A stretch of 64,000 nucleotides of DNA from assembly GCA_037143175.1 (NCBI GenBank), contig JBAWZF010000001.1, forward strand, positions 106,199-170,198. The letters run 5' to 3'. Within the stretch, counting starts at the first letter, position 1. Every line of letters starts with the position of its first letter. Below are positions 48,430 to 64,000 of this stretch, piece by piece. The translations under genes were made by a program, and so were the position numbers. Below the pieces are notes generated by a model. That model made no database searches, was not told the DNA's origin, and was given only the letters and a program-made list of their open reading frames with translations. Origin of the DNA: a bacterium. Lineage in GTDB: Bacteria > Verrucomicrobiota > Kiritimatiellia > CAIKKV01 > CAITUY01.

Positions 48430-49120
48430 CGCGAACTCCCTTGTTAGCCGGCAGGGTTTCATCGTATTCAAAAATCGGCTTGAAGTCCATCCGTTCAAAA
48501 AATGCGCAGGCCCCGGCATTATTGGCGAGAACAGTGGCGTGGACGCCCGGGACATGATTGGTCTTGAGCTTTTGCAGCAGCAATGAAATCAGTTTAGAGC
48601 CGGTATGGTGGCCTCGTGCCTGCTTCAAGAGGTTGATATGGAGGTGGGCGGGGTAATTCTCCGGCACGTGGAAAGGGGGGCGGATACATTGACCTTTTCG
48701 CTTTATTAAGGCTCCCGCCATGGCCCAGGTTGTCGACTTGAAAAGAAGCCCCCGCCCGAGCGCCAGAAGGAAGGCTTGTGGGCCGATGCTCCAGTGGAGA
48801 CTTTTTCTGAAAGCATGGGTGTCAGGGGCAGCCGTCAGGTACCCGACTAGTTGTCCATTGAGTTCGGCAACCCAGGAATAATCGCTGACGAAGTCGGTAT
48901 AATATCGTGTTACAAGGTCACTAACCAATTCCCGGTCTGAAAAGAAGTTTTCCAGCGGCTCGCCCGCAGCAGCCGTTTCAGCGCAGATATGCCGGATGGC
49001 ACTCCGGTCACTGGCCTGATAGGGACGGATGTTCACGGTGTCTATGGAACTGGGTTGTTCGAGGGGGGGCATGAGTCTATTCCGGTTACCGTTGGCTGAT
49101 ACGGAGCTGGTGGCATTCAT
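48392..49120 (-). CDS. GNAT family N-acetyltransferase
   Basis: The acetyl-CoA-binding region reads LLQKLKTNHVPGVHATVLANNAGACAFFERMDFKP. The ATG at 49120 follows GAGGCGGGA. Confidence 0.75.
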   Translation of the reverse strand: MNATSSVSANGNRNRLMPPLEQPSSIDTVNIRPYQASDRSAIRHICAETAAAGEPLENFFSDRELVSDLVTRYYTDFVSDYSWVAELNGQLVGYLTAAPDTHAFRKSLHWSIGPQAFLLALGRGLLFKSTTWAMAGALIKRKGQCIRPPFHVPENYPAHLHINLLKQARGHHTGSKLISLLLQKLKTNHVPGVHATVLANNAGACAFFERMDFKPIFEYDETLPANKGVRDVHVIVFGKAVR

Positions 49121-49152
49121 TCCCGCCTCTAAGCTTAGGGGCGGAAGGTTGG

Positions 49153-49650
49153 TTACTTTTTCCTGGAATCCTTGTGATGGCATGCAATGAACTTGGCTCG
49201 CACCTTTTCGACATGCTGCTTCGTATCCGCTCCAAGCTCGCGGGCAATAGCCTGATATTCAGGGGAATCGGCTTTCACGATTTCGTAGAAATGTGAGTCA
49301 ATCAGTGATGTTTCCACGTCCAGAGCAACTGAAAGGGCATGTATGGGAGAGGGGGGCGTTAGACGTGCTGATTCTAATTCCTTTTTAACCATGTCCATTA
49401 AGGGTGCCATCGCAACGGTGTCGAACCGTCCAATATCCTGAAAAATCAGGCCCTTTCCCTGAAGGTGAACCACCGATGTGAGTTGAGCGGCATGTTCTTT
49501 TTCCTCAAGCGCAAGGTCCTGCCAGAATTCAGACATTTCCTGATTTGTCCGCCCGAACTCTGAGTAGAGGTCAGCGATCAGTAACTCACAGGTTATCAGG
49601 TTGTTGATAATCTTGCGTTGGGCTTCGCGAATATGATGCTTGATATCCAT
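49153..49650 (-). CDS. Ferritin-like / rubrerythrin-like diiron-fold protein
   Basis: ExxH-type motifs ALEEKEHAAQL and ELGADTKQHVEK lie in a four-helix-bundle-like sequence. Confidence 0.5.
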   Translation of the reverse strand: MDIKHHIREAQRKIINNLITCELLIADLYSEFGRTNQEMSEFWQDLALEEKEHAAQLTSVVHLQGKGLIFQDIGRFDTVAMAPLMDMVKKELESARLTPPSPIHALSVALDVETSLIDSHFYEIVKADSPEYQAIARELGADTKQHVEKVRAKFIACHHKDSRKK

Positions 49651-49769
49651 AGTGATGCGTTCTTTTTCTAATGTCTTCAAAAAGTACCACAATTCCGTGT
49701 GTCGGTGTCAAATGTCTTTTAACTAAAACATTCGATGCCACATGCTTCTTGGATATTTATGAGGAATCT

Positions 49770-50810
49770 CTACCGTTGGTAGATGGGGAGCTGGCGGTAG
49801 GAGACACTCAGGGAGAGAATGGCCATGCTGGTGCAATAGGTGATATCTTTATCATGGCTGCCCGAGATTGGCCATGAACCGTCTTTTGACTGCGTTTTAA
49901 GAATGGTGTCATAGAGGATCGGGGCAAAGGCTTCCCATTCCGGACCACCCAGCTGGAACATCCCGTTGGCCACATAGTACAGGGCATAGTAGCGGCCAGA
50001 ATCGCCACTGAACGGTGAGTCTTTTTTGAACTGATTAATAATATACTGCCCCGCCTTAAGCGTGACATCTTCGCGGTGCCTTCCGGATAGTTCCAGGCAG
50101 AGGAGGCCGATTCCTGTACGGGCCAGGTTGGCCCCGCCACCGGGCTGGTAGGCGAACCCATTGTCCTGGGTCCGGCAGCGGAGGATGAACTTCACGGCTT
50201 TATCAATCGCCTCCTTGGGCACTGGTGCGCCATTGTTCCGGGTCGAGCGCAAGGCCGCCAAGGCCCAGCCGGCAAGGGAGATATCGCTGTCGGTACTGGT
50301 GGGCTGATAGCGCCAGCCGCCAGCCATGGACTCGGGCTTATTGACATCCTGGGCGTCCAATATGATGCGGATGGCCCTTGGCAGAATCGCATCGATCCTG
50401 GCCTGGCGTTCCGGATCCACCATGCCGGAGACTTCCGAGAGCATCAGGCAGGCGATGTTGTGGCTATACATCTGGCCCTGGCCGCCCATCATCGTGCCTT
50501 TCGTGTCCGGGGTTGTGAGAATGAAATCTATGCCGTGATTGATCACATCGCCATAGGGAGGAAGTCCCGGTGTATGGCCCCGGGCCAGAAATGCCATGAC
50601 GGCCAGAGATGTGATGGCGGGTGACTGCTTTTCTCCGATCGCCCCATCTTTTGTTTGTGATTTGGCGAGGAAGGAGAGCCCTTTATCCACCGCCTCATCA
50701 AACGCGCGTTGATACTTTACATCTTGTATCACAGAGGGTGCAGCGTTGGACGAGGAGGCCAGCAGGAGAGTGAGCGTTGCCAGTCCAAGTAATCGTGTGA
50801 AGATATTCAT
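49770..50810 (-). CDS. Secreted prenyltransferase/squalene-oxidase-repeat (terpenoid cyclase-like alpha/alpha toroid) protein
   Basis: A signal peptide MNIFTRLLGLATLTLLLASSSNA is followed by repeated QxxDGSW/GGW-type motifs (QTKDGAIGEK, QDNGFAYQPGG, SKDGSWPISG). The ATG lies 1 nt after the giant-gene stop. Confidence 0.6.
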   Translation of the reverse strand: MNIFTRLLGLATLTLLLASSSNAAPSVIQDVKYQRAFDEAVDKGLSFLAKSQTKDGAIGEKQSPAITSLAVMAFLARGHTPGLPPYGDVINHGIDFILTTPDTKGTMMGGQGQMYSHNIACLMLSEVSGMVDPERQARIDAILPRAIRIILDAQDVNKPESMAGGWRYQPTSTDSDISLAGWALAALRSTRNNGAPVPKEAIDKAVKFILRCRTQDNGFAYQPGGGANLARTGIGLLCLELSGRHREDVTLKAGQYIINQFKKDSPFSGDSGRYYALYYVANGMFQLGGPEWEAFAPILYDTILKTQSKDGSWPISGSHDKDITYCTSMAILSLSVSYRQLPIYQR

Positions 50811-50811
50811 A

Positions 50812-53800
50812 TTACTCCTCTTCTCCATGACCGGAAACCTCATGGAAATAGCGCTGGATTAAGGGGCGGTATTCTTCGGGGCCTTCATTATTGGCCGCCT
50901 TGAGCACATCGTCTTTCAATTCACCGTGCAGACGGAGCCAATCCTGAAGTTTTAGCCCCATACGTCGTGCAAAGGAGGGGACCCCTTCGGAGGCCTGTGA
51001 GGTATCGTTTTTGCCGTCACTGTTAAGACTGGCCGATTGGAGGGTCGCAGGGCGTGCGTTGGCGCCTGAGGCTTGAGCATCGGCGGCAGCCAGTTGAGCG
51101 GCTTGCGCCAGTTGAGTGGCGGACTGTGCGGCGGCAGATACTTGTGAACTTTCCGCCGCCTGTTTGGCCGACTGATAGGCTTGGGCGATGGCTTCCTGAG
51201 CTGCCAGCGAGGCGGCGGGTTGCTGGCCAGGGGCCGCCCTGGGCGTTTGAGGGGAACCCGCAGCACTGGCAACCTGTTGCAATTGAGCGGAGGCCTGTTG
51301 CAGTGATTGGGCGGCGTTCTGCTGGTTCTGAAGGGTTTGGCTGGCAGCCTGTTGTTGTTCCTGGGCTGAGGCCCTGCGCCCGGAATCATCATCCTTTCCG
51401 GTTGCCTCGATGAATCGTTTGGCGGATTGTTCTGCAGATTGGGTTGCCCGGTTTAATTCCTGGGCCGCCTGTGCTGTTTTGGGGCCAATCTGGGATTGTG
51501 CCAGAACATCGTTCGCTTGTTCATGGAGTACGTTGGCTTCCTGGGTGAGTTCTTTCGCCTCTCCGCCCAATTGTTCCTGCTGTTGTTGCAAGGCATCGTG
51601 TGGCCTGTTCTCGGCGAGGGCACCCATCAGATGTCCCAGTTGTGCCTGCTGTTTTGAGAGGGTGTCGGCCTGCTGGGCAAGACGGGCGAGTTCTGCACGT
51701 TTATCGAGCCGGTCTGAGGCGGTCGCTGTGGTTGCGGAGCGAAGCGTATCGGCGAGTTGATTCATGGCCTGACTGGCTTCCGTCGCGGATGAACTTGCTT
51801 GTGGCAGGTCACCTTTTTGCATTTCAGAGGCGGTCTGACGGGCCGTATCTGCCGCCCGGGTTGCCTGTATCGCCGCGCGGGTGGGAGGGGGCTCCTTATT
51901 CAATTCACGTGCCAGCGCATCGGTTTCATCCGCTAATTTCTGCTGCTGTTCGCCCGCCTGTCGTGAGAGGTTTGCGTTCAGTAAATCTTTTGCGTTCTCT
52001 TTTCCTGTAATCAGGTTGGCGGCTTCGCGGTGAAGTTCCGCTTGCTGCCGGGCCAGTTCTGACAACTTTAGCGCATTGTTTTGTTGAAGGATCCGCGCGG
52101 CAATTTCGCTGGTTTTCAATGCCGCTTCGGCTGCGGCCACGGCATTGGCGGTAGCTGTGGACGTCACCTTCGTGGCTTCTGATTGAGCCTGTTCGGCGGC
52201 GCGTGTGGAGGTTGAAGCGGCGGCCTTCTGGGCTTGCTCGATGGCATTTTGGGCTGCTTGCTGGGCCGTTTGAGCCGCCTGTTGTGCGTTTTGAACCTGT
52301 TGATTCACGGACTGGACGGATTGTTTTGCCTGCTGTGAGGCGTCCCGGGCTGCGGCTTCATTTTGTTTGGCGGCCAGGGCGTTTTGCTGTGCGGTCTGAG
52401 CAGCGCGAGCCATTGCCTGTTCGTCGGGTTTACCCTTGGCTTGAGTTGCCTGCTGAGTAATCTGCTGAGCGGCCTGAGCACTTCGGGCCGCCGTCTGTTG
52501 GGCGGTGGCTGCCTGTTGATCGATTTGTTGGGCTGCCTGCCGGGCTTTTTCTGCTGCCTGCTTTGTGGCCTCTGCTGCTTGTTGGGCAATCTTGTTGGCC
52601 TCCTGAGCTTGCTGCGCGGCTCGTTGTGCGGACGCTTTCGCCGAGACATTTCCGAATTTCGGCGCAATGGCGGCGGTAACTTGGGCATTGGTCTTGATAC
52701 CTGCTGCCTGGGTGGCAAACTCGTTGGCCTTTAGCGCCGCTTCCTGGGCGGCTACGGCGTTGGCGGTGGCGGCGGCGGCCGCCTTGGCCGTTTCTGCCTG
52801 TGCCTGCTCGGCGGCGCGCGTGGAGTTGGCGGTGGCTCCCCGCTGGGCTTGTTCAGTTGCCTGTTGAGCGGCTTGCTGGGCCGCTTGAGCCGCCTGCTGT
52901 GATTTTTGCACCTGTTGTTCTGCGGCTTGGGTGGCTTGCTTTGCCTGCTCTGCAGCCGCACGCGCTTCGACTTCGTTCTGCTTCGCGGTCTGCGCATTTT
53001 TCTGGGCGGTCTGAGCAGCTTGAGTCATGATTTGTTCGTTGGCGGTACCCTTGGATTGCTGGGCCAGTTGTGCCGCTTGTTCAGCTGTTTGTGAGCCTTT
53101 AGCGGCGGCTTCCTGGGCTGTGGCCAATTCTTGTGCGGCCTGTTGGACTGACTGTTTGGCGCGTTCTGCCGCCTCACCGGCGATTTTGGCAGCTTGTTGG
53201 GCCATCCGGCGGGCGTCTTGAGCTTGCTGTTCTGAACGTTGAGTGGCGTTCTTAGTCGCGGCATTTTCAAGGTTGAGTTTACTGGAGTCCTGTTGCTCGG
53301 CTTTCAAGCCTGCGGCACGCGCGGCGAAGTCACTGGCTTTGAGCGCGGCCTCTTCTGCGGCCAAGGCCTTGGTTGCGGCTAAGGCGGCGGCCTTACGGGT
53401 TTCGTCCTGAGCCTGTTCAGTGGCGCGTGGGGACGTGGCAGAAGCAGCCTTCTGCGCTTGATCAATTGCCTCTTTCGCCGCCTGCTGGGCTTCTTCAGCC
53501 GCATTTTGCGCTTTTTGTGCCTGAACTTCGGCGGACTGGTTGATTTGTTTTGCCTGTCGCGCGGCTTGTGAGGCAGTTTGTGCACTCTTTGAGGAAGTTT
53601 GTTTAGCCATCGCCGCCTGTTGTTCGAGTTGTTGGGCTGTCTGCCTGGTATTTTCAGCCGCCTGCCCGGCGTTTACCGTTGCCTGCCGGGCAAGTTTGGC
53701 ATCTTCCTGTGCTTGCTGTGCGGCCTGTTGCGTGGCGGCTTTTGCCAGGGCGTTTTCGAGCGGGGATTTTCCTGAGGCTTGCTGTTCCGCACTCAGGTCT

Positions 53801-56800
53801 GTCGCCCGTTCGGCAATTTTTGCAGCTTTCAAGGCTGCTTCTTGTGCAGTCACGGCATGGGCCGTGGCTGCTGCTGCCGTCCTGGCAGTTGCGGCTTGTG
53901 CCTGTTCGGCGGCGAACGGGGTGGGGGCGGCGGCACCTTTCTGGGCTTGTTCAGTTGCCTGTTGAGCGGCTTGCTGGGTATCCTCGGTCGCTTTTTGAGC
54001 TTTCAGAACCTCTTGCTCGGCTGCTTTCAATAACCCTTGTGCCTGCTTGCTGGCCTTGCGTGCCGCGTCCTCGTTTTGTTGTGCGGACAGAGCTTTCTGC
54101 CGTGCCGCCTGAGTGGCATTGATCAGTTCCTGTTCGTTGGCTTTCCCCATGGCATGTTGCGCTTGTTGGGCCGCTTGTTCCGCTGCCTGTGAACTCTTTA
54201 CTGCAGTTTGCTTTGCCAGCGAAAGCTGTTGTTCGATTTGTTGAACTGCCTGTCTGGTTTTGTCCGCCGCCTGTTCGGCGCGTTGGGTCGACTGCTGGGC
54301 CAGCTTACGGGCATCCTGAGCCTGCTGTGCCGCCTGTTGTGTATCATTTTTTGCCGGGGTAACCGCAGAGTTGGGGGTGGAGGAAGCTTCCTGATTGGCT
54401 CTTATCTCCGCCGCCCGTGCGGCGAGTCCACTGGCTTTCAACGCCGCATCTGATGCCGTCTTGGCATGGACGGTGGCTGAGTCGGCTGACTTCGCAGTCT
54501 CGGCGAGCGCCTCTTCTGCGGCGTGTGTGGAAGTGGAGTAAGTTGATTTTTGAACCAGCTCAGCGGCTTGATTGGCCTCATGTTGGGCGGCTTGAGCCGC
54601 CTGTTGTGCTCGTTTCGCCTGGTCTGCCGCTGCTTGTGCGGTTTGTCTGATCTCTTGTGCGGCCTCGCGAGTCGCGGCTTTGTTTTGGTCAATTTGTTGA
54701 GCGGTCTGTTGGGCCCTCTCCGCAGCCTGTCCGGCGTTCAGTGCGGCGAGTTTGGCAAGGCTGCTGGCTTCCTGTGCTTGCCGCGCTGCTTGTTGTGTTG
54801 CGGCTTTTGCAGAGGGGTCTTCAGGTTTGGGGTTGGCGGAGGCTTGCTGGTCGGCATTCAGTTCAGCCGCGCGGGCGGCGAGTTCGCGCGTGGGGTTCGG
54901 TTTGATAGAATCCTGAGACTGCTGCTGTGCAGCCTGTGGCACGGCGGTCTGTTGAGCGTTGGCAGCCTGGCGCAGTATATCAGCGGCCTGTTTCAGGGCG
55001 TCGGATACGTTGGCCTGGGTTTCGACGGCATGTGCGGTTTTTCCGGATTCCAGATCGCGGGCGGCATTTCGCATGGCTTCGCTTTGGGCCGCTGCCAGCG
55101 GTTCGTTGCGGGCAAGATCTGCCAACTGATTCTGGCGAGTGGTGAGCTCGCGCCATTGGCTGTCCTGTTTCTGAAGTCGCTCCGTTTCTTCTTTTGTTAA
55201 AGCCGCGAGCTCTTTCTGCCGCGTCGCGAGGTCATTGGCCTGAGTGGCGGCTTGAGTCGTACGGTTACTGATAGCCGCGGCAATCTGGGCTGCGGAGCCG
55301 GGGGTTTCGCGGGTGACTTTGGCGAGTTCATTGGCCACCTGATTCTGGGCACGCTTCCACTCATTTGAGGCGGCAGCAGCCTGGGCGATGGCGGTCGTGT
55401 TACTGGAAGGGATGGGCGGGGTGTTGTCCATGTCTTGCCGGGCTTGCGCAAGGGCGGCCTGTTTATTCGCCAACTGCTCGAGTTTCACGGCGCGGTGAAC
55501 TGCGGCCCTGGCAATTTCATGATTCTCAATAGCCTTCTCCACGGTCTCCAGCGAGGTGGTGATTTCCGCAGTGATATTGCTGTTGATGGCGGTGCGCTCG
55601 GCGGGGGTGTCAAGAAGACGGATTTGCCCCGCCATATTTTCCGCCTTGCTGATATGGCCTTCCGCAAGTGTGGTCAGGTTACTGGCCATGGATTCAAAGA
55701 AGCCCTTGTCAATATCAGCGGCGATTTTCCTCAGCCCGTTGTCGGTGGAGGCCAGCGTATCCTGAAGGGTGTCAATTTGGCGGGTGGTGCTGTCGGGGAG
55801 GGTGGGCTGGCCCAACGGCTTTTCCAGGGCCCGTGCCTGTTCGCGGGCAAGGTTGAGTTGATCCCGGACCTTCTTGAGTCCCTGTTGGACGCGCTGATCC
55901 TGACTGGTCAGAACTTGTTCTGTCCAGGAGGCCGCCTGATTATCAATGAGGATGGTGCAGGGCTCCGAGTCGGTGCTCTGGGGACCTTGGAAAGGCCTCG
56001 GGAGGTTATCAAACGCCCGGATGCGGAAGGAGACGCGTGTCGCGTTGCTGAAACAGATGTCCTCAAGCGCGATAAGTGTTTCTCCATTGAGGGTTCTTGG
56101 AATTGTTTCTGGCGAGGAATCCGGCAGGGGCAGGGACCGGATCAGGTCGTTGGTCATTCCCGAAACAGTGCAAACAAGGGCCACGGCGGTTAACCCGTGA
56201 TCGTCTTCAGCCCGGTAGGTGATAGGGAGGCGGGCCTCGCGGTTCAGGTGCAGCTCACGGGTGAGGGGGCTGGTTAGGGTGACCACGGGTGGATTGTCCG
56301 GGATGCTCTGTATAGGGTGCTCGAATGGAGAGTTGGTCAGGTTGATTTCGTCAGTCAGTCGGATGGTCCAACTACCGTTCAGTTTTCCTGGTAACGTGAG
56401 ACTGAAATCATAAAAATTGATTTTTCCTTCCGTGCGGAGAAGTCCTGTGAAGGTGTTAGTCAGGGTGGGGGTCATCACCAAAAGTATGGCTTGGCGCGCG
56501 GGTTTGTTGACTTGAGCCGACAGGGATACGGCGGTGCCGGCAAGCGCCCGGATGGTTCCGGAGCCGTCACGCTCCTGCTTGATGCTCAGGCGTGAGTATT
56601 CGGGGTAGCTGTATTGGAGGGCGAGGTGTTCAATGACGGGGGGGATGGCCACACGGACGGTGAAATACCGGGAGAGTGCATCGCCGGCCTGAACGCGATA
56701 CCGGAAGTCGTTCAGGATGCGGGGAACGGTGACGGCAAAGCGTCGTCCCGGCTGATTGGTTGAGGCCGGCAGTGGAGCCATTTCCATGACCGTTACACGG

Positions 56801-57531
56801 CCTTGACGATCCACCTGGCGAAGCCGTGCGAAGGAGACGACCGGGTTGGCTGTGCGAAGCGAAACGTTCAAGGAAGATCCTGCGGCAACAAGGGTATCGC
56901 CGGGTTCAACCACGAGGTCGACCGCCTGAACGTTGGGGAGATTTAGGAAGGGGGCTGTGGCACGTGCCAGCAGGAAACAAGTTTGCCGGGGCCATACCAG
57001 GTAGATCGTCGACAGCGAAATAAATACGATTGCGGCGGCGGCGACGAACGGAATCGCGCCGCGAAATGAGATTTCATGGCGGGGTTGGATCGTGATGGCT
57101 TCGCGGACCGCTTCTTCGGTCAAGGCCGCGATGAGGGTTTCTGAGCCGCGAATGGAGGGGAGATCCTTACTGCCCAGGAGTTGGACGGCGGAACTGATGC
57201 GCTCCTGTAATTCCGGATGGTGTGTTTCGATGAGCCGTGCAACGCCGGCCAGCGTGAACGAGTGGGTCAGGGGCCGGATCAGGTACCAGACTGTCGCTCC
57301 CACCCAGGCAGCATAGGCCAGCACGGTCATGACCCAGCGGGGCCACTCGACCAGCAGGGTGACGCTGGCATCCAGCAGCATGATCAGCAGGAACGCTCCG
57401 AGTCCGGCGGCACAGGAAGCGCAAAGTCCGCGGAGAATCATCAGGTGCCGTGTCCGCCGGATCAGCCCGCTGAGTGCGGTTACAATCTGGGCTGGCAGCG
57501 GGGCCGGTTCGTTTATCGGGGTCTTGTTCAT
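50812..57531 (-). CDS. Giant (2239 aa) membrane-anchored Ala/Gln/Glu/Lys-rich coiled-coil protein with internal tandem repeats, part of the BatA/BatB cassette
   Basis: Two or three N-terminal TM helices are followed by a beta-rich region of about 450 aa. About 1500 aa of heptad-like low-complexity sequence follow, containing at least 5 tandem units of roughly 170-200 aa (...QQAQEASSLAKLAALNAGQAAERAQQTAQQIDQ... recurring). The C-terminus is acidic. The start MNKTPINE overlaps the upstream stop by 1 nt. Confidence 0.8.
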   Translation of the reverse strand: MNKTPINEPAPLPAQIVTALSGLIRRTRHLMILRGLCASCAAGLGAFLLIMLLDASVTLLVEWPRWVMTVLAYAAWVGATVWYLIRPLTHSFTLAGVARLIETHHPELQERISSAVQLLGSKDLPSIRGSETLIAALTEEAVREAITIQPRHEISFRGAIPFVAAAAIVFISLSTIYLVWPRQTCFLLARATAPFLNLPNVQAVDLVVEPGDTLVAAGSSLNVSLRTANPVVSFARLRQVDRQGRVTVMEMAPLPASTNQPGRRFAVTVPRILNDFRYRVQAGDALSRYFTVRVAIPPVIEHLALQYSYPEYSRLSIKQERDGSGTIRALAGTAVSLSAQVNKPARQAILLVMTPTLTNTFTGLLRTEGKINFYDFSLTLPGKLNGSWTIRLTDEINLTNSPFEHPIQSIPDNPPVVTLTSPLTRELHLNREARLPITYRAEDDHGLTAVALVCTVSGMTNDLIRSLPLPDSSPETIPRTLNGETLIALEDICFSNATRVSFRIRAFDNLPRPFQGPQSTDSEPCTILIDNQAASWTEQVLTSQDQRVQQGLKKVRDQLNLAREQARALEKPLGQPTLPDSTTRQIDTLQDTLASTDNGLRKIAADIDKGFFESMASNLTTLAEGHISKAENMAGQIRLLDTPAERTAINSNITAEITTSLETVEKAIENHEIARAAVHRAVKLEQLANKQAALAQARQDMDNTPPIPSSNTTAIAQAAAASNEWKRAQNQVANELAKVTRETPGSAAQIAAAISNRTTQAATQANDLATRQKELAALTKEETERLQKQDSQWRELTTRQNQLADLARNEPLAAAQSEAMRNAARDLESGKTAHAVETQANVSDALKQAADILRQAANAQQTAVPQAAQQQSQDSIKPNPTRELAARAAELNADQQASANPKPEDPSAKAATQQAARQAQEASSLAKLAALNAGQAAERAQQTAQQIDQNKAATREAAQEIRQTAQAAADQAKRAQQAAQAAQHEANQAAELVQKSTYSTSTHAAEEALAETAKSADSATVHAKTASDAALKASGLAARAAEIRANQEASSTPNSAVTPAKNDTQQAAQQAQDARKLAQQSTQRAEQAADKTRQAVQQIEQQLSLAKQTAVKSSQAAEQAAQQAQHAMGKANEQELINATQAARQKALSAQQNEDAARKASKQAQGLLKAAEQEVLKAQKATEDTQQAAQQATEQAQKGAAAPTPFAAEQAQAATARTAAAATAHAVTAQEAALKAAKIAERATDLSAEQQASGKSPLENALAKAATQQAAQQAQEDAKLARQATVNAGQAAENTRQTAQQLEQQAAMAKQTSSKSAQTASQAARQAKQINQSAEVQAQKAQNAAEEAQQAAKEAIDQAQKAASATSPRATEQAQDETRKAAALAATKALAAEEAALKASDFAARAAGLKAEQQDSSKLNLENAATKNATQRSEQQAQDARRMAQQAAKIAGEAAERAKQSVQQAAQELATAQEAAAKGSQTAEQAAQLAQQSKGTANEQIMTQAAQTAQKNAQTAKQNEVEARAAAEQAKQATQAAEQQVQKSQQAAQAAQQAAQQATEQAQRGATANSTRAAEQAQAETAKAAAAATANAVAAQEAALKANEFATQAAGIKTNAQVTAAIAPKFGNVSAKASAQRAAQQAQEANKIAQQAAEATKQAAEKARQAAQQIDQQAATAQQTAARSAQAAQQITQQATQAKGKPDEQAMARAAQTAQQNALAAKQNEAAARDASQQAKQSVQSVNQQVQNAQQAAQTAQQAAQNAIEQAQKAAASTSTRAAEQAQSEATKVTSTATANAVAAAEAALKTSEIAARILQQNNALKLSELARQQAELHREAANLITGKENAKDLLNANLSRQAGEQQQKLADETDALARELNKEPPPTRAAIQATRAADTARQTASEMQKGDLPQASSSATEASQAMNQLADTLRSATTATASDRLDKRAELARLAQQADTLSKQQAQLGHLMGALAENRPHDALQQQQEQLGGEAKELTQEANVLHEQANDVLAQSQIGPKTAQAAQELNRATQSAEQSAKRFIEATGKDDDSGRRASAQEQQQAASQTLQNQQNAAQSLQQASAQLQQVASAAGSPQTPRAAPGQQPAASLAAQEAIAQAYQSAKQAAESSQVSAAAQSATQLAQAAQLAAADAQASGANARPATLQSASLNSDGKNDTSQASEGVPSFARRMGLKLQDWLRLHGELKDDVLKAANNEGPEEYRPLIQRYFHEVSGHGEEE
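51700..54950 (-). repeat. Intragenic tandem repeat array (about 5 units of about 0.5-0.6 kb, degenerate) encoding the coiled-coil repeats of the giant protein
   Basis: Recurrent protein blocks (AATQQAA[RQ]QAQE[AD]..., AAEEALAETAKSA.../AAEQAQAETAKAA..., ...AEEAALKAS[DG][FL]AARAAG) appear at about 170-200-aa intervals. The boundaries are approximate. Confidence 0.55.
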
Positions 57532-60500
57532 CAGGGCAGCCTCACTTTCTTGCGCAGCATCCACTCGGCGGTCAGGAGCGTCAGGATCAGAAGAAACCAG
57601 GGCCAGGAATTCCATATATCAATCTGGCGCCGTTCTGTGCTCGTGATTTTTGCGGGCCCGAGCCGTTTGGAAATGGAGTCGAGCGCAGATGTATCCAGGA
57701 CCTTGCCGGCGGAAAGTCCGGCCAGACTGGTCAGCACTCCGCGGTCCGCCGAAAGCTCAACTTTTTCAGCATCCGTTACCGCCGTGACGGAAAATTCGGT
57801 GAACGGTGACGGGGCGGTATCCTTTTTGCTGATTCCAGACGTTTCCAGTTCAATGCGGTAATTCCCTTCGGGTAACGCACTCAGTTCGGTGAAGTAGATC
57901 CCCGGAGAGCTCTCGCGATAACTCAATTGGAAATGGGAGACTTTCCGGTCGCCGCGCCACAGCGTTGCGCCAGGGGAAGCTTTTATGATGGGCATGAAGT
58001 CCGGCGTGGCCAGCCGTGCGGTAACGCGAATCGGGCTTCCGGCAGGGTAACGCGAGCGGGAGGTTCCAATCCGGAGCGTATTGGAACCGGTGGCAATTCT
58101 ATCGGCCGTGGCCCAGCCGAGAATTTGACCCCATAGTTTGTGGTGAAATTGATCGCCCTTCTTGTAACGCATACGCCAGGTCTGGTCGAACCCGAACATC
58201 AGAACCGAGCCGAAGCCGGCTTGATGGCTGATCACGAGCGGATTCTCCTGTTCAAGTCGTTGTTGCTTGAGAAGACTTTCGGCGTCAGGAATACGGCTAG
58301 GCAGCCCATCGGATTCCGGCTGTGGTGGTGTCGCATAGGCGAGCACGGTGGCCCCGTTCTTGGCCGTGATGGCGCCGTTCCTCCAGCGGAGTCCGGGCAC
58401 TTCGCCCCAGGCTTTCAGGTTCCCGGCCGGGTCATCATCAAGCCTCATAAACATGGCATCCCGGCCCGCCGCAGTCAGGCTGAGCCGAAATTCCATTTCC
58501 GGTGCCGCAAGAAGGGGACGCTGGGTGGGTTTGAAAGTGACGGGAAGGATTTCTGTCAGGGGAGTACCGGTATAGGCTTGCGGCATATGCCGACTTCCTG
58601 CGATGACAATGAGTGAACCGCCGCGGCTGAGGACATAGTCCCGCAGGATGTCCATGTTGGCCTTGCCCAGTTCATCAGGGGCCACATCTCCCAGGATAAT
58701 GACATCGAATTTCAGCCACTCCGCCGTATTCGTCGGAAGGAGGGTGGCTTCGGGTTCCGCCTGGTCTGCCGCGACAGTGGCAGCGCGCGGGGGGCGGTTG
58801 GTGATTCCCGCAACCTGGTCAGGATGAAGCAACAGGTACTGGAGCCGCACATTCTTGTCCCGTTGCATGAAGAGATTTTTGAGATAACGGAATTCCCAGC
58901 GCGGTTGGCCGTCGATCAGCAGGACATTGATGGCATCGCTCTCTACCCGCACGGGAATATTGAATACGTTATTGCTGGAATCGACTTCGGAAGGGAAATT
59001 TCCAACCCTGACGGAATAGGCGTGCAGGCCATTTGTTTTTGGGGCATCCGAGAGCAGGAGCTGCTGTCGGAAGGCAGCGGCTGAAGGTGTGACGGTGTTA
59101 GAGGCAACCGGGGTGGCGCCATCGAAGAGGGTGACGGTCACATTGGAGCCAGACAGGCCATCCAGTTTCAAATCGAGCGCAAAGGAGATCCGGTCGTTTG
59201 TGCTGACCGATTCGGGCGCGGTGACAGAGGCGATGGCGGCATCGGTCGGGGGGAACTGATTTCCTCCGAGTACAACAGGGAAGATAGGAATTCGCTGTAC
59301 GCCGAATTTGCGGGCGATGGATTCCACGGAACCGGCGGTGTTGTGGCGGCCGTCCGTAAGAAGAAGCACCCCGGCGGTCTGTTCCGGTACCATGGTGGAT
59401 GAGATCCTGGCCAAGGCTCCAGCGATATCGGTTCCCTGAACCTGCCGGGGCGGAGGCGAGGTGATGACCAGGGTGCCAGCGGCCTCAAGAAATGTTTTGG
59501 TTTTTACTTCGGTGGGTGATGACCCGAAGGTCAAGAGTTGAACGCCATATTCATGCTCGAGACGTTCGAGCAGGGACTGTGTGCCGGTGCGGGTTGTCAG
59601 GAGTTTATACGCCACCTCACTCCGGCGGAACGTGGCCATCTGGTCGATGGCCTTGCGATCCGACTCGGACAGGGAACGGTAGAAGCGTTCATCCACGGCA
59701 TCGCCGATGAGCCGCAGTCGTGCTTCGCCCTCGGCGAGGAAGGTCGCCGTTTTTTGCACGGTTTCGCGGATGGAGTCATAGGCGGCACCGCTATTGGTGA
59801 CGGTCTGCCAGTCGTCAACCCGCTTGATGGCAAGCTCCAGGGGTTGACTGGCTTCGGAGGTAATTCGGGATCTGAAGCGCTTCAGATCGGTGATTTGGGA
59901 GGTGGCATCCTTCTGAAGGAAGGGCGCCGCCGCGGTTTCGTCGAGGACTTTTACGGTTTCTTCGAGACTGTCGCGAACCTGGGTCAGCGCTTTCCGTTGC
60001 GCTTTAACATGCTGTTTCAATTGGCGGGCGCGGAGATCCTGGCCGGTTCCGGAAAGAGCATTAAGCCAGTCGAGTTGCGCCAGAAGGTTCTGACTGGCTT
60101 CGTTCAAGCGGTCGGCAAGTGTGTCGACTTGGAAGAGGCGTTGAGCCATGGGGAGCTGCAGGCTCTCGGCCAGGCGTAGTTTTTCGGCCACGGTCAGGTT
60201 GTTATCCGGGATCTGCATGGAGGCGCTGACATCCAGCAAGACCACGATGTGACGCTGGATTTTATGGGCGACGTTGTAGACGAAAACGGGCTGACAGAGC
60301 ATCAGGACAACCGCCAGTAGGGTGGATATCCTGAGGAGGGTCAGGGCTCTGCCAGCCCGGGGGGATACGATATTCCGTTCAAGACGTGCCAGTGCCATGA
60401 CCGTTTCGATCAGGAGGGCGGCGAGAAGCAAGAGTGGCCACAGACGCCATTTAGTTGAAAATACGACGGCCTGTTGGGCCAGTCCGGCGGCGGCGAGGAG

Positions 60501-60653
60501 CGTCAAAAATCCAAGGGCTGATCTGCCGGTAAACGCCAGCCATTTCCACGGGTTCACCACCACGCGGCTCCAAACCTGGGCGCGTATCCACAAACCCAGC
60601 AGAAGACAGGTTAGTAGGCTGTAGACTAATAGACTGTTCGAGAAATCAATCAT
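57531..60653 (-). CDS. BatB-like vWA protein: N-terminal multi-TM region, split von Willebrand A domain with coiled-coil insert, class-I glutamine-amidotransferase-like (DUF4159/ThuA-like) domain, C-terminal TM
   Basis: The vWA DxSxS motif is VVLLDVSASM and the later vWA half is VLLLTDGRHN. The amidotransferase-like segments are VLLIDGQPRWEFRYLKN, DVIILGDV and GGSLIVIAGS. The C-terminal TM is WPWFLLILTLLTAEW. The start MIDFSN overlaps the BatA-like stop (ATGA). Confidence 0.7.
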   Translation of the reverse strand: MIDFSNSLLVYSLLTCLLLGLWIRAQVWSRVVVNPWKWLAFTGRSALGFLTLLAAAGLAQQAVVFSTKWRLWPLLLLAALLIETVMALARLERNIVSPRAGRALTLLRISTLLAVVLMLCQPVFVYNVAHKIQRHIVVLLDVSASMQIPDNNLTVAEKLRLAESLQLPMAQRLFQVDTLADRLNEASQNLLAQLDWLNALSGTGQDLRARQLKQHVKAQRKALTQVRDSLEETVKVLDETAAAPFLQKDATSQITDLKRFRSRITSEASQPLELAIKRVDDWQTVTNSGAAYDSIRETVQKTATFLAEGEARLRLIGDAVDERFYRSLSESDRKAIDQMATFRRSEVAYKLLTTRTGTQSLLERLEHEYGVQLLTFGSSPTEVKTKTFLEAAGTLVITSPPPRQVQGTDIAGALARISSTMVPEQTAGVLLLTDGRHNTAGSVESIARKFGVQRIPIFPVVLGGNQFPPTDAAIASVTAPESVSTNDRISFALDLKLDGLSGSNVTVTLFDGATPVASNTVTPSAAAFRQQLLLSDAPKTNGLHAYSVRVGNFPSEVDSSNNVFNIPVRVESDAINVLLIDGQPRWEFRYLKNLFMQRDKNVRLQYLLLHPDQVAGITNRPPRAATVAADQAEPEATLLPTNTAEWLKFDVIILGDVAPDELGKANMDILRDYVLSRGGSLIVIAGSRHMPQAYTGTPLTEILPVTFKPTQRPLLAAPEMEFRLSLTAAGRDAMFMRLDDDPAGNLKAWGEVPGLRWRNGAITAKNGATVLAYATPPQPESDGLPSRIPDAESLLKQQRLEQENPLVISHQAGFGSVLMFGFDQTWRMRYKKGDQFHHKLWGQILGWATADRIATGSNTLRIGTSRSRYPAGSPIRVTARLATPDFMPIIKASPGATLWRGDRKVSHFQLSYRESSPGIYFTELSALPEGNYRIELETSGISKKDTAPSPFTEFSVTAVTDAEKVELSADRGVLTSLAGLSAGKVLDTSALDSISKRLGPAKITSTERRQIDIWNSWPWFLLILTLLTAEWMLRKKVRLP

Positions 60654-63154
60654 TTCGACATCAACTCCGTTAGTCGTGTTTTCGTAGCCTGTACGCTTTC
60701 TGCCGGGGATTTCAGGGTTACCGGTTTGGCCTGATGCAGATGCCGGTGTAGCGTGATCCAACGGGTGAGGGTAACTTCGGCAAGGAGTGTAAACAAGGCA
60801 CAGATAACCAGGATCTTCCATAATTCCTGGCCGGGTATATTCCCTGTGAAGGCGGTGAGAAGTTCATCCAGAGATTTCGGCAGGAACAAGTCGACGTGGC
60901 TTCGGATGGCCGCGATATCGGCATCGGATAGAAAGGTGAGGGTGCTTTCTTCAGGCTGGTTCTTCACCGCAAAGAGCACCTCGGAGTTACCATTCGAGGC
61001 GACCCCGGCAGCGGCGGCAAGGGCTGCGGGGAATTGGACACGGTAAATTCCGGGTTGGCGGGTCTCGCCGCAACGGACGATGAACCGGTTTTTTTCCTGT
61101 TTGATCCGGATGGGAAGTTGCTCGCCAGCGGGGAGGGTGACCGTGGCTGTTTCCCAATCCGCCGTATTATTGACGTCCGCAGGAACTACGCCAGCCAACG
61201 TCCATTCTGTACCCGGCATGATATTGCAGTCCTGCAGGGATGAGGTCGCCAGGAAGTACACCATCTCATGGAGCAGCGGGACAAAGCATTTGAGGGAATA
61301 CAGGTTGCTGTCGCGGCGATCAAAGGCCATGGGCGTCATCAATACGTTCCCTTTTCCGAGTGGACGTTCCAGCAGCCAGGGGGCGCCGGATTCAAGCCGG
61401 CCGCCGACCCGGCTCTCGTTGGAGGCGGGATCGAGTCCCATTTCCCAATAGCTGGCTATAAGGCCAAGCCGGGCGTCCGATTGATCCGGTTGCGCCACCA
61501 GTCGGACTGCGGGATGGGTAAAGGACTTGAGTTCCAGTTTCAGCGGATCGGGTGGGTAGATGCGTTGCTCGAGCCGGGCGGGAAGAAGGGTCTCCCCGGC
61601 GGTGGTCTGCCAGGCATTGTAGAACGCCGGTTCGGCGCGGGCACCGGGAGTCACCAGCAGGCCGCCCCCTGCCTTGACGAAAACGGCCACACGTTCGGCC
61701 TCTGCCGCAGGCAGACGGGAGACGTCCGCCAGAATTATGACGCGATATGGGGTGAGATCTTTGATGGTGCCGATATCAGCTGCCTCAACAATGGTGGGCT
61801 TGACCAGATAGGGCAATTCCGAGGTGTCGGCACTCTTATTGGCGGAGGCGTCACGTGGGGTCAACGCGACCCGGATGAGGCTTGCCGTTTTACGGAAGAA
61901 GAAACGTTCCGTAGAGGCGCCCTCAACCAGCAGGATCGGTAGACGATCCAGGATGTGGACAATCTGTTCGAGGGAATTATCGGCGAGGAGATCATCTTCG
62001 GCCACGAGTCGGGCTTGAATGACATGGTAGCCGGGTGTCTCGAACATGTGGTTGAAAAGGAATACCTCGGCCGCCTGCGGCACCAGATCCTTCATGATCG
62101 GAGTTCGCTCGATTTGTTTTCCATCCACCAGCAACTCGAGCGCGGACGGGTGGACCGGGACGTTACCTGAGTTGGCGACGCTGACTTCGATTTTTACCGG
62201 GCGATCTGTACCGATGATGGAGCGTGACAGGCGGATTCCAGTGACCAGCGTATTCCTGAACAGTTCAGGGTGGGGAAGGCGGCGGCAGATGATACGCGGC
62301 GGAGTCGGCAGTTGCTTGAAGCCGGAGGCCAGAAAGTTCCAGCGGGCTTCTGTCTGTCCGTCCCAACCTGCGGCCTGGCCATCTGTGAATATCACCACGG
62401 TCTTAGACACATTAGGACCATCGGCCAGGATCGAGGTCGCCAGGTTCAGGGCTTCCAGTGTGGCCATGATGCTGCCGGTGGGTTTGCAGGCCTTGCTGTC
62501 GAGGGCGCGCAGCAACTCGCGCCGATCAGAGGTGGGGCGACTGACAAGGGCCTGGGGGACGGGGCCCGCCAGGATAATCGCCATGGCGTCACCGGGGCGT
62601 GACTTTTCAATCAGGTCACGGGCTTCCTGGACCGCCTGGGTGAATTGGCTTGGACCCTCGGAGGCCATGGTCATTGAGAGAGAGGCGTCGAGAACGATCA
62701 CCGTGTCGCCACCTCCCGCCGCCGTCATCCAGCGGCGTGCCTGGATCCGCTGTTCCAGGAGGGTCGCCAGTACGGCAATGACCAGCATGGCGGCCGCGAT
62801 TTTCAACAGCCGGCGGCGCAACTTTTCATTGGGCCAGAGGACCGTGGCAATGCCGGCGCAGAGTACGGCGAGAAAGATGCCGGGCAGGATGAGGATCCAG
62901 GGGATGGCGGACATACTGGGAAGAAAGGGGCGGGCCATGGCCAATGCCAGGGTGGCCAGCGCCAGGCAGCGCAGGCACAGGAGGATACCGTCCTCGATCT
63001 TTACGCGGCGGCTACGGGCGGTCATGGAGGCCCTCAGGAACTGCATGGCACCCCATTCGATGGGACGGGGTTTGCTGCGGTTCAGCAAATGAATCAGGAT
63101 CGGGATGGCGATCGCCGCAAGGCCAATGAGGATAAGTGGATTTAAAAATGTCAT
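60650..63154 (-). CDS. BatA-like vWA protein with N-terminal double-transmembrane domain (834 aa)
   Basis: The N-terminus [40 protein letters not shown] is the characteristic Bat-type N-terminal double-TM signature. The vWA motif is [10 protein letters not shown] with a MIDAS-like TDGQ. The C-terminal TM is [11 protein letters not shown]. The track extension to 63340 just reads through the heptamer repeats. Confidence 0.75.
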
Positions 63155-63166
63155 GGTGACTCCGGC

Positions 63167-63380
63167 ACGGGCAGTGGCCAGTAGGCAGTGGGCAGTGAGC
63201 AGAGAGCAGTGGGCAGTGGGCAGTAGGCAGTGGGCAGTGGGCAGTGAGCAGTGAGCAGTGGCCAGTGGGCAGTGAGCAGTAGGCAGAGAGCAGAGAGTAA
63301 AAGAGGGGTATTCGAGCTCTGTCGACTGCCCACTGCCCACTGCCCACTGGCCACTGTTAACTGTTCACTGCTCACTGGCC
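63167..63380. repeat. Heptanucleotide tandem-repeat inverted array: about 18 direct copies of GGGCAGT-like units, a 28-bp spacer, then about 8 inverted copies (ACTGCCC-like)
   Basis: Positions 63167-63297 read cagtggc cagtagg cagtggg cagtgag cagagag cagtggg and so on. The spacer taaaagaggggtattcgagctctgtcga follows. Positions 63326-63380 read ctgccca ctgccca ctgccca ctggcca ctgttaa ctgttca ctgctca ctggcc. The element fills the whole DUF58-BatA intergenic region. Confidence 0.9.
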
Positions 63381-63383
63381 TCT

Positions 63384-64000
63384 TCATCTTCTCACCAGGC
63401 TCTTCCGATGGGCCAGGTAACTGGCCAAGGCCAGATCAAAATCCTGGCGGGTTGAAAAGGGGACGTAGTCTATCCGCATTTCCCCGCAGCCTTTTTCAAT
63501 GGCATCAAGAAAGGTGCGGACTTCACGGAGATAAGCTGAACGCAGGGATTCCGGATCGATCTCCAGATGGTTTCCGTTCTGTTCTAGATCCTGGAACTGG
63601 CTCCAATGTTTGAACGGGAAGGTCAACTCCTCATCCGCCATCACGTGCATGAGAATAATTTCATGCTTGCGGAAGCGGAAGTGGTGCAATGCCTTGAGAA
63701 TCTCCTCCGGCTTGTCGAACAGATCGGAGATGATGATCAGGAGGCCGCGCCGGTGAATCCGTTCGGCAACTTCATGGAAAACCGGGGCGAGGGCCGATTC
63801 TTCGCCAGGGGTTGTGTTGAACATCGCCTCCAACAGGACGTTCATATGATTGGTTCGCGTCCGGGAGGGAATGTAGTTGCGGATGGCGTTGTCATAGGTC
63901 ACGAGCCCGACAGCGTCCTGCTGGTTCAGGAGGAGACGGGTCAGACTCGCGGCGAGGAAGCGGGCGTACTCAAATTTACTGAGCGGTTGTCCCTGATGTT
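63384..64000 (-). CDS. DUF58 family protein (vWA-like, MoxR-operon type), 5'-truncated by window end
   Basis: The C-terminal ~205 aa read ...[67 protein letters not shown]...[10 protein letters not shown], which is typical of DUF58. The frame is open to position 64000. Confidence 0.75.

Follow-up and report, generated by a model that had tools for sequence, protein, structure and literature searches.

A MoxR/DUF58/BatA-type gene cassette of the Kiritimatiellia with a DUF4175-like giant and a secreted (α/α)6 barrel protein

The DNA analysed here (the window) is a stretch of 64,000 nucleotides from a bacterium of the Kiritimatiellia (Verrucomicrobiota), taken from contig JBAWZF010000001.1 of assembly GCA_037143175.1. 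Its end, 49770..64000, was occupied by five co-directional minus-strand open reading frames (ORFs), arranged head to tail and recovered where an initial annotation, made by a model from the letters alone, had placed them. They encode the C-terminal part of a DUF58 protein, a BatA-like protein with a von Willebrand factor type A (vWA) domain, a 1040-residue membrane protein, a giant of 2239 residues related to the DUF4175 family, and a secreted protein with a predicted (α/α)6 barrel, referred to below as the toroid protein. The window very probably holds the 3' five-sixths of an operon conserved in bacteria of the Planctomycetes-Verrucomicrobia-Chlamydiae (PVC) group, with the gene order MoxR, DUF58, BatA-like, split-vWA, DUF4175 and (α/α)6.

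Conservation of the cassette

Relatives of the giant were sought with a pattern scan covering one genome per GTDB species, derived from an alignment of the N-terminal 620 residues of the giant (8 close sequences), and were found in 205 species. Gene order was checked in the best 80 of the loci, and all ORFs of these 80 loci were searched with the six proteins of the window's cassette. The 80 loci came from Kiritimatiellia, Verrucomicrobiales/Akkermansiaceae, Phycisphaerae, Brocadiia and other Planctomycetota. Homologues of MoxR, DUF58, the BatA-like protein and the 1040-residue protein were encoded in that order in 50 of the 60 loci whose upstream flank reached 8.2 kb or more. The toroid gene immediately followed the giant in 50 of the 58 loci where the giant was complete and sufficient sequence lay downstream. 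Several of the misses in both counts were frameshifts or short flanks. The order is therefore conserved across the Verrucomicrobia, Planctomycetes and Kiritimatiellae, and the giant and the toroid gene, which had been described as an atypical downstream pair, are the conserved norm in PVC bacteria. The instance in the window is an ordinary member of the cassette whose giant has an unusually expanded spacer.

A Lentisphaeria contig, reached through the toroid protein, carried DUF58, BatA, a 1066-residue protein, a 1221-residue protein and a toroid gene in the same order. Departures from the arrangement were also recorded. Three loci (L012, L014 and L081) contained the giant-toroid pair with no MoxR cassette within 10 kb; L058 contained a solitary giant homologue, and L056, with a shorter upstream flank, contained a giant homologue without a flanking 1040-residue or toroid gene. 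Such giant loci away from the MoxR cassette occur in a few Planctomycetota and Verrucomicrobiales genomes.

One locus (L083) lay outside the PVC group, on plasmid 1 of Gemmatirosa kalamazoonensis (NZ_CP007129.1, 725810-751141), a 1.1-Mb replicon of the Gemmatimonadota. It comprised MoxR, DUF58, a BatA-like gene (683 aa) and a DUF4175-like gene (1268 aa), with a gene resembling that of the 1040-residue protein (803 aa) approximately 5 kb upstream; no toroid gene was detected in its downstream flank of approximately 10 kb. The linkage of DUF4175 to MoxR thus reaches beyond PVC bacteria in at least Gemmatirosa, and the toroid gene was seen only in PVC loci. Because Gemmatirosa has the MoxR-DUF58-BatA-DUF4175-like arrangement without a toroid gene, the linkage of DUF4175 to MoxR is older than that of the toroid gene.

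Public databases already carry automatic annotations of the cassette proteins. The cassette occurs in 200-odd species genomes, relatives of the giant having been found in 205 and the gene order having been checked in the 80 loci. Literature searches found no description of the six-gene PVC cassette, no link of DUF4175 or of the toroid family to MoxR, and no link of DUF58 or BatA with a prenyltransferase-repeat protein. DUF4175 appears in PMC7481262 as no more than a domain label on the Acinetobacter protein AdvA; its other occurrences were in a preprint of the same study and in unrelated work on eukaryotes.

MoxR, DUF58 and the two vWA proteins

An exact-sequence look-up of the BatA-like protein led to the same contig in the NCBI metagenome-assembled genome GCA_964512545.1 and in an ENA assembly. 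In both public assemblies a MoxR gene (349 aa) was located directly upstream of DUF58, so that the MoxR gene which the initial annotation had placed by inference beyond the window is present on the source contig. Its product matched AAA_3 with 206.7 bits and AAA_lid_2 with 65.6 bits, and also weakly matched the bpMoxR model of MoxR-vWA-beta-propeller ternary systems (46 bits). DUF58 matched PF01882 with 85.5 bits over the part within the window and with 146.7 bits over the full 319-residue product, which was recovered from the extended contig (L001).

The BatA-like protein matched BatA_N (PF07584; 69.9 bits), TIGR02226 (82.8 bits) and VWA_2 (54.9 bits). These three scores were all above their cutoffs, which supports the naming of the protein and, with MoxR and DUF58, the assignment of the locus to the MoxR/DUF58/BatA type. 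By hydropathy, the BatA-like protein has four N-terminal transmembrane (TM) segments, comprising the double-TM BatA/TIGR02226 domain and two more, and a single C-terminal TM anchor. Between these lie a vWA domain with the DxSxS motif of a metal ion-dependent adhesion site (MIDAS), a CARDB-like beta-sandwich and a GATase1-like region of the DUF7408 type. BatA_N and VWA_2 were matched in all 25 orthologues scanned and CARDB in 22 of them. A PA14 domain was present in 12 of the 25 (best E 4.8e-20); it is an addition of the Verrucomicrobiales versions, and the protein in the window does not have one. Verrucomicrobiales orthologues (e.g. L032, L037, L043, L046 and L047; the gene lies at approximately 3.6-6.8 kb in each locus) are of about 1000 residues, against about 835.

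The 1040-residue protein had been called BatB-like. Hydropathy gave four N-terminal TM segments, and a hydrophobic stretch near the C-terminus (approximately residues 1015-1035) was read from the sequence as a TM anchor. The Pfam matches were all sub-threshold (DUF7408, 24.7 bits; VWA_2, 17.1 bits against a cutoff of 27), with no match to BatA_N, and a sequence search of the PDB gave no match. Across 28 orthologues, D141-x-S-x-S145 followed by M146, T408-D409 and D434-G435 were invariant. The protein probably contains a vWA domain of the MIDAS type that is interrupted by some 200 inserted residues, helical in character as read from the sequence. It also has beta-sandwich and GATase1-like (DUF7408) modules. 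Weak matches among the 28 orthologues were to MG2 (16), DUF7408 (14), YtkA (10) and GATase1_like (3), and some orthologues also weakly matched VWA, VWA_2 or VWA_CoxE. When the orthologues of the 1040-residue and BatA-like proteins were compared with hhalign, a probability of 97.5% and an E-value of 6e-12 were obtained over 272 columns, covering the beta-sandwich and GATase1-like part. The 1040-residue protein is thus a distant paralogue of the BatA-like protein and not a BatB orthologue, so that the name BatB-like suits it only in a loose sense. Of that name, the membrane location, the invariant DxSxS/T-D/D-G residues and the kinship with BatA stand; no vWA model was matched above threshold.

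In both vWA proteins the C-terminal TM helix, as read by hand, has a basic tail behind it, and their large domains are therefore predicted, by the positive-inside rule, to be periplasmic. The VWFA domain of Borrelia BB0173, a BatA-type homologue, has been shown experimentally to face the periplasm (PMC5700661).

The DUF4175-family giant

As a whole protein the giant returned nothing in Pfam or NCBIfam scans. When its N-terminal 620 residues were searched alone, DUF4175 (PF13779) was matched over residues 319-528 with 21.5 bits and an E-value of 7e-5, below the cutoff of 27.3; NCBIfam TIGR02302 was not matched even at E <= 10. Among 12 aligned sequences, consisting of the window protein and close homologues, five matched DUF4175 (best E 9.4e-13). 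PF13779 was also carried by three of 12 homologues obtained by word search, two of which are named 'DUF4175 family protein' by NCBI. An exhaustive search of 1.84 billion cluster representatives with a profile of the giant domain gave 18,919 matches at E <= 1e-3 and 6,065 at E <= 1e-30, and lengths among the best 150 matches ranged from about 450 (partial) to 2,876 residues. On these profile matches the giant is a divergent branch of the very large, catalogued but uncharacterised DUF4175 family, and is not its longest member. The hint at DUF4175 in the initial annotation was thus correct. The same annotation had held that membership of a known, characterised family would speak against its reading; this is touched only partly, since the family is known but uncharacterised.

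Members of DUF4175/TIGR02302 share with the giant two or three N-terminal TM helices followed by a long, extracytoplasmic, Gln-rich region of low complexity. Typical members are of about 800-1000 residues. At 2239 residues the giant is some two to three times this length, and the excess corresponds to about five tandem duplications of about 200 residues each.

Three TM helices were located by hydropathy within the first 181 residues, leaving about 2,060 residues beyond them. An AlphaFold2 model of residues 1-620 had a mean predicted local distance difference test score (pLDDT) of 83.6, and of about 90 across the immunoglobulin (Ig)-like domains. Helices were modelled at residues 14-56 (TM1), 62-89 (TM2), 94-153 (a cytoplasmic segment) and 156-179 (TM3), and beta-sandwich domains at approximately 205-295, 300-410 and 416-530, after which the long helical region begins. 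A Foldseek search of this model against the PDB gave only generic tandem-Ig ectodomains and no functional lead. The helical cytoplasmic loop, of about 70 residues, holds the most conserved motif of the family, HHPELQERISS.

Because the N-terminus is strongly positive, and is thus expected to be cytoplasmic under the positive-inside rule, and is followed by three TM helices, everything beyond residue 180 is predicted to be periplasmic; the Ig-like domains are consistent with this. The family description of TIGR02302 agrees with a cytoplasmic N-terminus and a periplasmic bulk. Together with a composition of 23% Ala and 13% Gln, this topology supports the original picture of an inner-membrane-anchored protein with a very long Ala/Gln-rich extracytoplasmic region.

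Approximately five tandem copies of a unit of 165-205 residues, 45-55% identical in amino acids, were found at residues ~850-1900 (51832-54984). Self-BLAST in chunks gave repeat offsets of 163-205, 366 and 569, and autocorrelation peaks lay at 203, 366 and 571. The repeats were visible only when the protein was chunked, whole-protein self-BLAST returning only the identity match, and Tandem Repeats Finder (TRF) detected no DNA-level tandem repeat inside the gene, the copies being too diverged.

The initial annotation had predicted about 1500 residues of coiled coil. At a period of 3.62 the spacer showed a power of 5.3 for Ala (95th percentile of shuffled sequences, 1.9) and of 3.4 for charged residues (1.4), higher than any of the shuffle percentiles tested; power at 3.5 was at noise level, and large hydrophobic residues gave no heptad signal. 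Composition and periodicity therefore describe an amphipathic-helical spacer. The helical part of the prediction holds, and a canonical coiled coil is not supported. Beyond residue 560 the giant has 37 Pro and 42 Gly, dividing it into 24 Pro/Gly-free segments of 25-140 residues.

In orthologues the spacer, measured from the N-terminal domain to the C-terminal module, was always rich in Ala, Gln and Glu, with peak periods scattered from about 3.4 to 3.66. Its length varied 3.5-fold, from 424 to 1,498 residues, and more than 2-fold among close relatives (about 600-1500). Some Planctomycetota spacers had 10-17% Gly and 6-10% Pro and a low-complexity look. Long orthologues had repeats of their own, with unit lengths of 200-256 residues; expansion of the spacer is therefore recurrent and lineage-specific, and the giant owes its size to tandem duplication of Ala/Gln-rich helical units of about 200 residues.

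The C-terminal ~120 residues conform to the consensus GI..DWaRLPG.L....A....P.EYR.LI.RYF. This tail was found by phmmer in 58 of 64 complete orthologous ORFs. The acidic C-terminus (…GHGEEE) was considered as a conserved MIDAS ligand and rejected, since the final residues vary among orthologues.

The toroid protein

The toroid protein matched Prenyltrans with 33 bits (cutoff 26.5), also matched SQHop_cyclase_C, and begins with a Sec-type signal sequence (MNIFTRLLGLATLTLLLASSSNA/AP). Its AlphaFold model (pLDDT 90.6; predicted TM-score (pTM) 0.87) consists of the signal-peptide helix followed by a 12-helix (α/α)6 barrel. The earlier description of a prenyltransferase/squalene-oxidase-repeat protein with a signal peptide is borne out by these results. 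The structural neighbours were the single-domain 'squalene-hopene cyclases' 8PAK and 8PAJ (TM-score 0.66); the lanosterol synthase barrel and the exported Yersinia pestis protein YPO2471 (7TEM) are its other closest counterparts.

Invariant features of the family are GGWRY...S.DSD.S..GW, H117, C238, H245 and a C-terminal QLPIYQR. Median identity across the PVC phyla was 49%, against about 35% for the N-terminal domain of the giant, and the toroid protein is the best conserved non-ATPase product of the cassette. A word search returned 2,479 homologues, carrying the NCBI names 'prenyltransferase/squalene oxidase repeat-containing protein' or 'terpene cyclase/mutase family protein'.

With class II terpene cyclases of the squalene-hopene type the toroid protein shares the (α/α)6 barrel with QW-type repeats. 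Those enzymes, however, are two-barrel (beta-gamma), cytoplasmic and membrane-monotopic, whereas the toroid protein is a single barrel of 346 residues, is secreted and contains no DxDD motif, its closest conserved acidic motif being D174-S-D176. For these reasons it is not a squalene-hopene-type cyclase. The beta subunit of protein prenyltransferases binds Zn through an Asp/Cys/His triad and works with an alpha partner. The toroid protein has the conserved residues D174/D176, C238 and H245, and there is no alpha-subunit-like gene in the cassette. The toroid protein may be either a binding module or an enzyme.

A second toroid paralogue was observed downstream in four loci, adjacent in L046, L057 and L081 and about 4.4 kb further on in L026.

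Gene layout and the intergenic hairpin

Coordinates of the genes and of the parts of the giant are given in Table 1.

Table 1. Coordinates of the cassette genes, the intergenic spacer and the parts of the giant within the window
Feature	Coordinates	Strand	Remarks
DUF58 gene, C-terminal 204 codons	63384..64000	-	Start lies past the window end
DUF58-BatA-like intergenic spacer, 229 nt	63155..63383	-	Two inverted heptamer arrays
BatA-like protein, 834 aa	60650..63154	-	BatA_N, TIGR02226 and VWA_2 matches
1040-aa membrane protein	57531..60653	-	Distant paralogue of the BatA-like protein
Giant, 2239 aa, whole gene	50812..57531	-	DUF4175 family, by profile
Giant, residues 1-181	56989..57531	-	Basic N-terminus, TM1, TM2, cytoplasmic loop, TM3
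Giant, residues ~205-530	55942..56919	-	Three tandem Ig-like beta-sandwiches; weak DUF4175 stretch
Giant, residues ~536-2120	51172..55926	-	Ala/Gln-rich amphipathic-helical spacer
Giant, residues 2121-2239 and stop codon	50812..51171	-	Conserved C-terminal module
Toroid protein, 346 aa (357 aa from alternative start at 50843)	49770..50810	-	Secreted (α/α)6 barrel

The BatA-like and 1040-residue genes overlap by 4 nt, and the 1040-residue gene and the giant by 1 nt. Giant and toroid gene are separated by a 1-nt gap if the 346-residue start chosen by gene callers is used, and overlap by 32 nt if translation of the toroid gene begins at the upstream ATG (357 residues). DUF58 and the BatA-like gene are 229 nt apart. 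The initial annotation was therefore wrong in giving every junction an overlap of 1-4 nt, the DUF58-BatA-like junction being a gap filled by a heptamer-repeat hairpin.

TRF located two heptamer arrays in this gap, at 63169-63286 and 63325-63377, which are mutually reverse-complementary: (GGGCAGT)n followed by (ACTGCCC)n in the coding sense. The corresponding RNA can pair with itself as a hairpin, its stem spanning about 55 bp (minimum free energy -117.8 kcal/mol, z = -8.6), and none of 200 shuffled sequences folded as well. The gap corresponds to 9772-10000 of L001, and a further cluster of the same heptamer was found at 1975-2016 of that locus. A scan of the other fetched loci (L003-L082) did not find the heptamer cluster, which was confined to L001 and L002, both representing the window's own contig. 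The hairpin is private to this genome and looks like a repetitive extragenic palindromic (REP) or miniature inverted-repeat transposable element (MITE)-like repeat inserted within the operon.

Three genes follow the operon on the same strand (47002-49692). One is an ORF of 179 residues unmatched in Pfam; the others encode a GNAT acetyltransferase (263 aa) and a PIG-L-type de-N-acetylase (517 aa). Terminator and promoter scans of the 3' end of the operon gave sites no more frequently than in shuffled sequences, and no terminator-like site beyond the shuffle level was found between the toroid gene and these three genes. The region divergently upstream of MoxR (1-7471 of L001) encodes an FHA-domain sigma-54 activator and a cluster of chemotaxis proteins (CheA-like, a methyl-accepting chemotaxis protein and CheR). 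Over the gene of the giant (50001-56000) the AT skew was strongly negative, down to -0.55; this is taken to reflect the Ala/Gln codon bias of a minus-strand coding sequence and not a separate feature.

Discussion

The core of the cassette is shared with known operons, and its remainder sets it apart from them. The Bat operon of Bacteroides fragilis (batI-batE), Borrelia bb0170-bb0176 and the bat genes of Leptospira have in common with it MoxR, DUF58 and a BatA protein with a double TM and a MIDAS-type vWA domain. Next in Bat operons come another BatA-type protein and BatC/D/E, which contain TPR and SH3 domains (PMC5700661), whereas the PVC cassette continues with the split-vWA/GATase1-like protein, the DUF4175 giant and the secreted (α/α)6 barrel; Pfam scans matched no TPR or SH3 domain of the BatC/BatD/BatE type in any cassette product. 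The BatA-like protein itself has 834 residues and additionally carries a C-terminal anchor and modules of the CARDB and GATase1-like kinds, whereas the mapped domains of BB0173 stop at residue 328 (PMC5700661).

Operons of MoxR, a vWA (DUF58) protein and a YebA-like transglutaminase (PMC3495828) also couple MoxR and a vWA-type partner to a polytopic membrane protein. Zhang and Aravind (2012) proposed that these act close to the membrane, where the vWA domain would recruit substrates for remodelling by MoxR. The PVC cassette has just the first two genes in common with such operons; it encodes no transglutaminase or peptidase domain, and its membrane partners are vWA/GATase1-like and DUF4175 proteins with a periplasmic bulk.

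A third comparison is offered by Rhizobium leguminosarum RL3499-RL3502, a MoxR-type cassette that is broadly conserved and is grouped with Bat-like loci (PMC5700661). Mutation of this operon affected morphology and envelope integrity (Vanderlinde et al. 2011, J Bacteriol 193:2684, as summarised in PMC5118466 and PMC5700661). The phenotype as given in these summaries is the sole one guiding the mechanism set out below, and an envelope role of the PVC cassette would be in line with it. The host is an alphaproteobacterium, whereas the window is from a PVC bacterium. The four genes presumably encode MoxR, DUF58, a TIGR02226-type protein and a membrane protein. The operon is not known to include a toroid gene.

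On balance the explanation preferred here, a conserved six-gene operon that also specifies an envelope complex, is somewhat likelier to be right than wrong. Its mechanistic part, a MoxR-serviced complex of the inner membrane and periplasm, is tentative and, considered separately, has the odds against it. MoxR and DUF58 would form a cytoplasmic AAA+ module for remodelling or assembly, docking on cytoplasmic loops of the three inner-membrane proteins; the strongest candidate for a docking site is the loop with HPELQERISS in the DUF4175 protein. On the periplasmic side, the bulk of the complex would consist of two MIDAS-bearing vWA domains with their beta-sandwich and GATase1-like modules, and of the three Ig-like domains of the giant, from which a long and flexible helical tether would extend. 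The conserved module at the C-terminal end of this tether may cooperate with the secreted (α/α)6 protein, which could be an enzyme with a lipid or glycan of the envelope as its substrate, or else a binding module. Taken as a whole, this ATP-serviced complex would maintain or organise the envelope; it would be neither an oxygen-defence device nor a ruler of fixed length. Conservation of the MIDAS motifs in both vWA proteins counts in favour of such a complex.

Several points weigh against this explanation. The six products are linked by co-localisation of their genes alone, the PVC cassette is known here only from its genes, and the topologies were assigned by hand. PF13779 fell below its gathering score in the window protein and TIGR02302 was unmatched. 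The conservation of the toroid protein would fit equally an enzyme unrelated to the tether. Deletion of the bat genes in Leptospira gave no morphology or growth phenotype (PMC3557215); Bat-type cassettes therefore do not all have an envelope role.

The alternatives were weighed against the same evidence. The cassette might instead be a maturation system, in which MoxR, DUF58 and the vWA proteins form a chaperone or cofactor-insertion machine for the (α/α)6 enzyme or its product and the DUF4175 protein is a membrane adaptor. Characterised MoxR/vWA pairs are presented in PMC3893208 as chaperone-like maturation factors for dedicated protein complexes. The standing of the toroid protein as the best conserved non-ATPase would suit a client of this kind; its invariant His, Cys and Asp residues could bind metal or act in catalysis, and its fold is common to many enzymes. 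However, MoxR is cytoplasmic, whereas the toroid protein carries a Sec signal peptide. The Gemmatirosa linkage exists without a toroid gene, and the giant-toroid pair occurs in three loci with no MoxR cassette nearby. The toroid protein also has no DxDD motif and matched no enzymatic family. A maturation system is accordingly considered unlikely.

About as improbable is the idea, raised in the initial annotation, that the giant acts as a rigid rod of coiled coil, a scaffold or ruler that spans a wide periplasm or paryphoplasm and sets its width. Its inner-membrane anchor, the approximately 1,600 helix-prone residues outside the membrane and the conservation of both ends would suit a ruler, as would the abundance of the family in Planctomycetota, which have enlarged periplasms, and the periodicity peaks of some orthologues nearer 3.5. 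The protein in the window, however, lacks the heptad signal, and its helix is broken by Pro and Gly into two dozen segments. As a single helix, its ~1,560 spacer residues would extend for about 230 nm, far beyond the width of an ordinary periplasm. A ruler is also weakened by the 3.5-fold variation in spacer length through independent duplications with different unit lengths, close relatives included, and by the Gly/Pro-rich, low-complexity-like spacers of some Planctomycetota. The data fit better a flexible or folded-back tether of evolvable length.

A role in aerotolerance or oxidative stress, after the name of the Bacteroides Bat operon, is very unlikely. The MoxR, DUF58 and BatA N-terminal and vWA domains are indeed homologous to the Bat core, and a phenotype of reduced aerotolerance in B. 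fragilis is cited in PMC5700661. Leptospira biflexa with all bat genes deleted, however, was unchanged in its tolerance of oxidative stress (PMC3557215), family scans detected no redox domain in any of the six products, and the TPR and SH3 genes of the BatC/D/E type are replaced by unrelated genes. A defence system was rejected as the least credible reading: although MoxR weakly matched bpMoxR and MoxR-vWA-YebA operons have been proposed as degradation systems (PMC3495828), AAA_3 was by far the better match, the six products gave no match in PADLOC and revealed no domain of the peptidase, nuclease, beta-propeller or effector type, and the conserved order and broad species distribution are housekeeping-like and not those of a patchy mobile element.

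The envelope complex may be compared with TolA. TolA is fixed in the inner membrane, where its energy source also lies; its periplasmic part is a long helical domain rich in Ala, and a small conserved domain at the C-terminus makes contact with partners in the outer envelope. The likeness to the giant is one of working principle only, there being no relationship of sequence or fold. TolA is powered by the proton-driven TolQR stator, whereas the giant would use a cytoplasmic AAA+ ATPase, and the spacer of the giant is 5-10 times longer. A bolder version of the envelope reading, which is speculative and improbable as it stands, is that the six genes encode an undescribed AAA+-serviced trans-envelope apparatus of PVC bacteria. 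In this, the DUF4175 protein would be an inner-membrane-anchored tether with a length evolving by repeat duplication; its C-terminal module and the (α/α)6 protein would together make contact with the outer membrane or peptidoglycan, or modify a lipid or glycan of the envelope, and MoxR and DUF58 would assemble or reset the apparatus through the cytoplasmic loop. If true, it would be an ATP-driven functional analogue of the Tol/Ton-type envelope connectors.

MoxR/DUF58/BatA cassettes are among the most widespread bacterial operons of unknown function. In four PVC phyla the cassette is built from the same six genes, and through it DUF4175 and the secreted 'prenyltransferase/squalene oxidase repeat' proteins, both of them large orphan families, become linked to the MoxR core. 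Testable partners are thereby provided, namely the conserved cytoplasmic loop, the two periplasmic MIDAS sites, the C-terminal module of the giant and the conserved (α/α)6 protein, and genetically tractable hosts for their study exist among the Planctomycetes and in Akkermansia.

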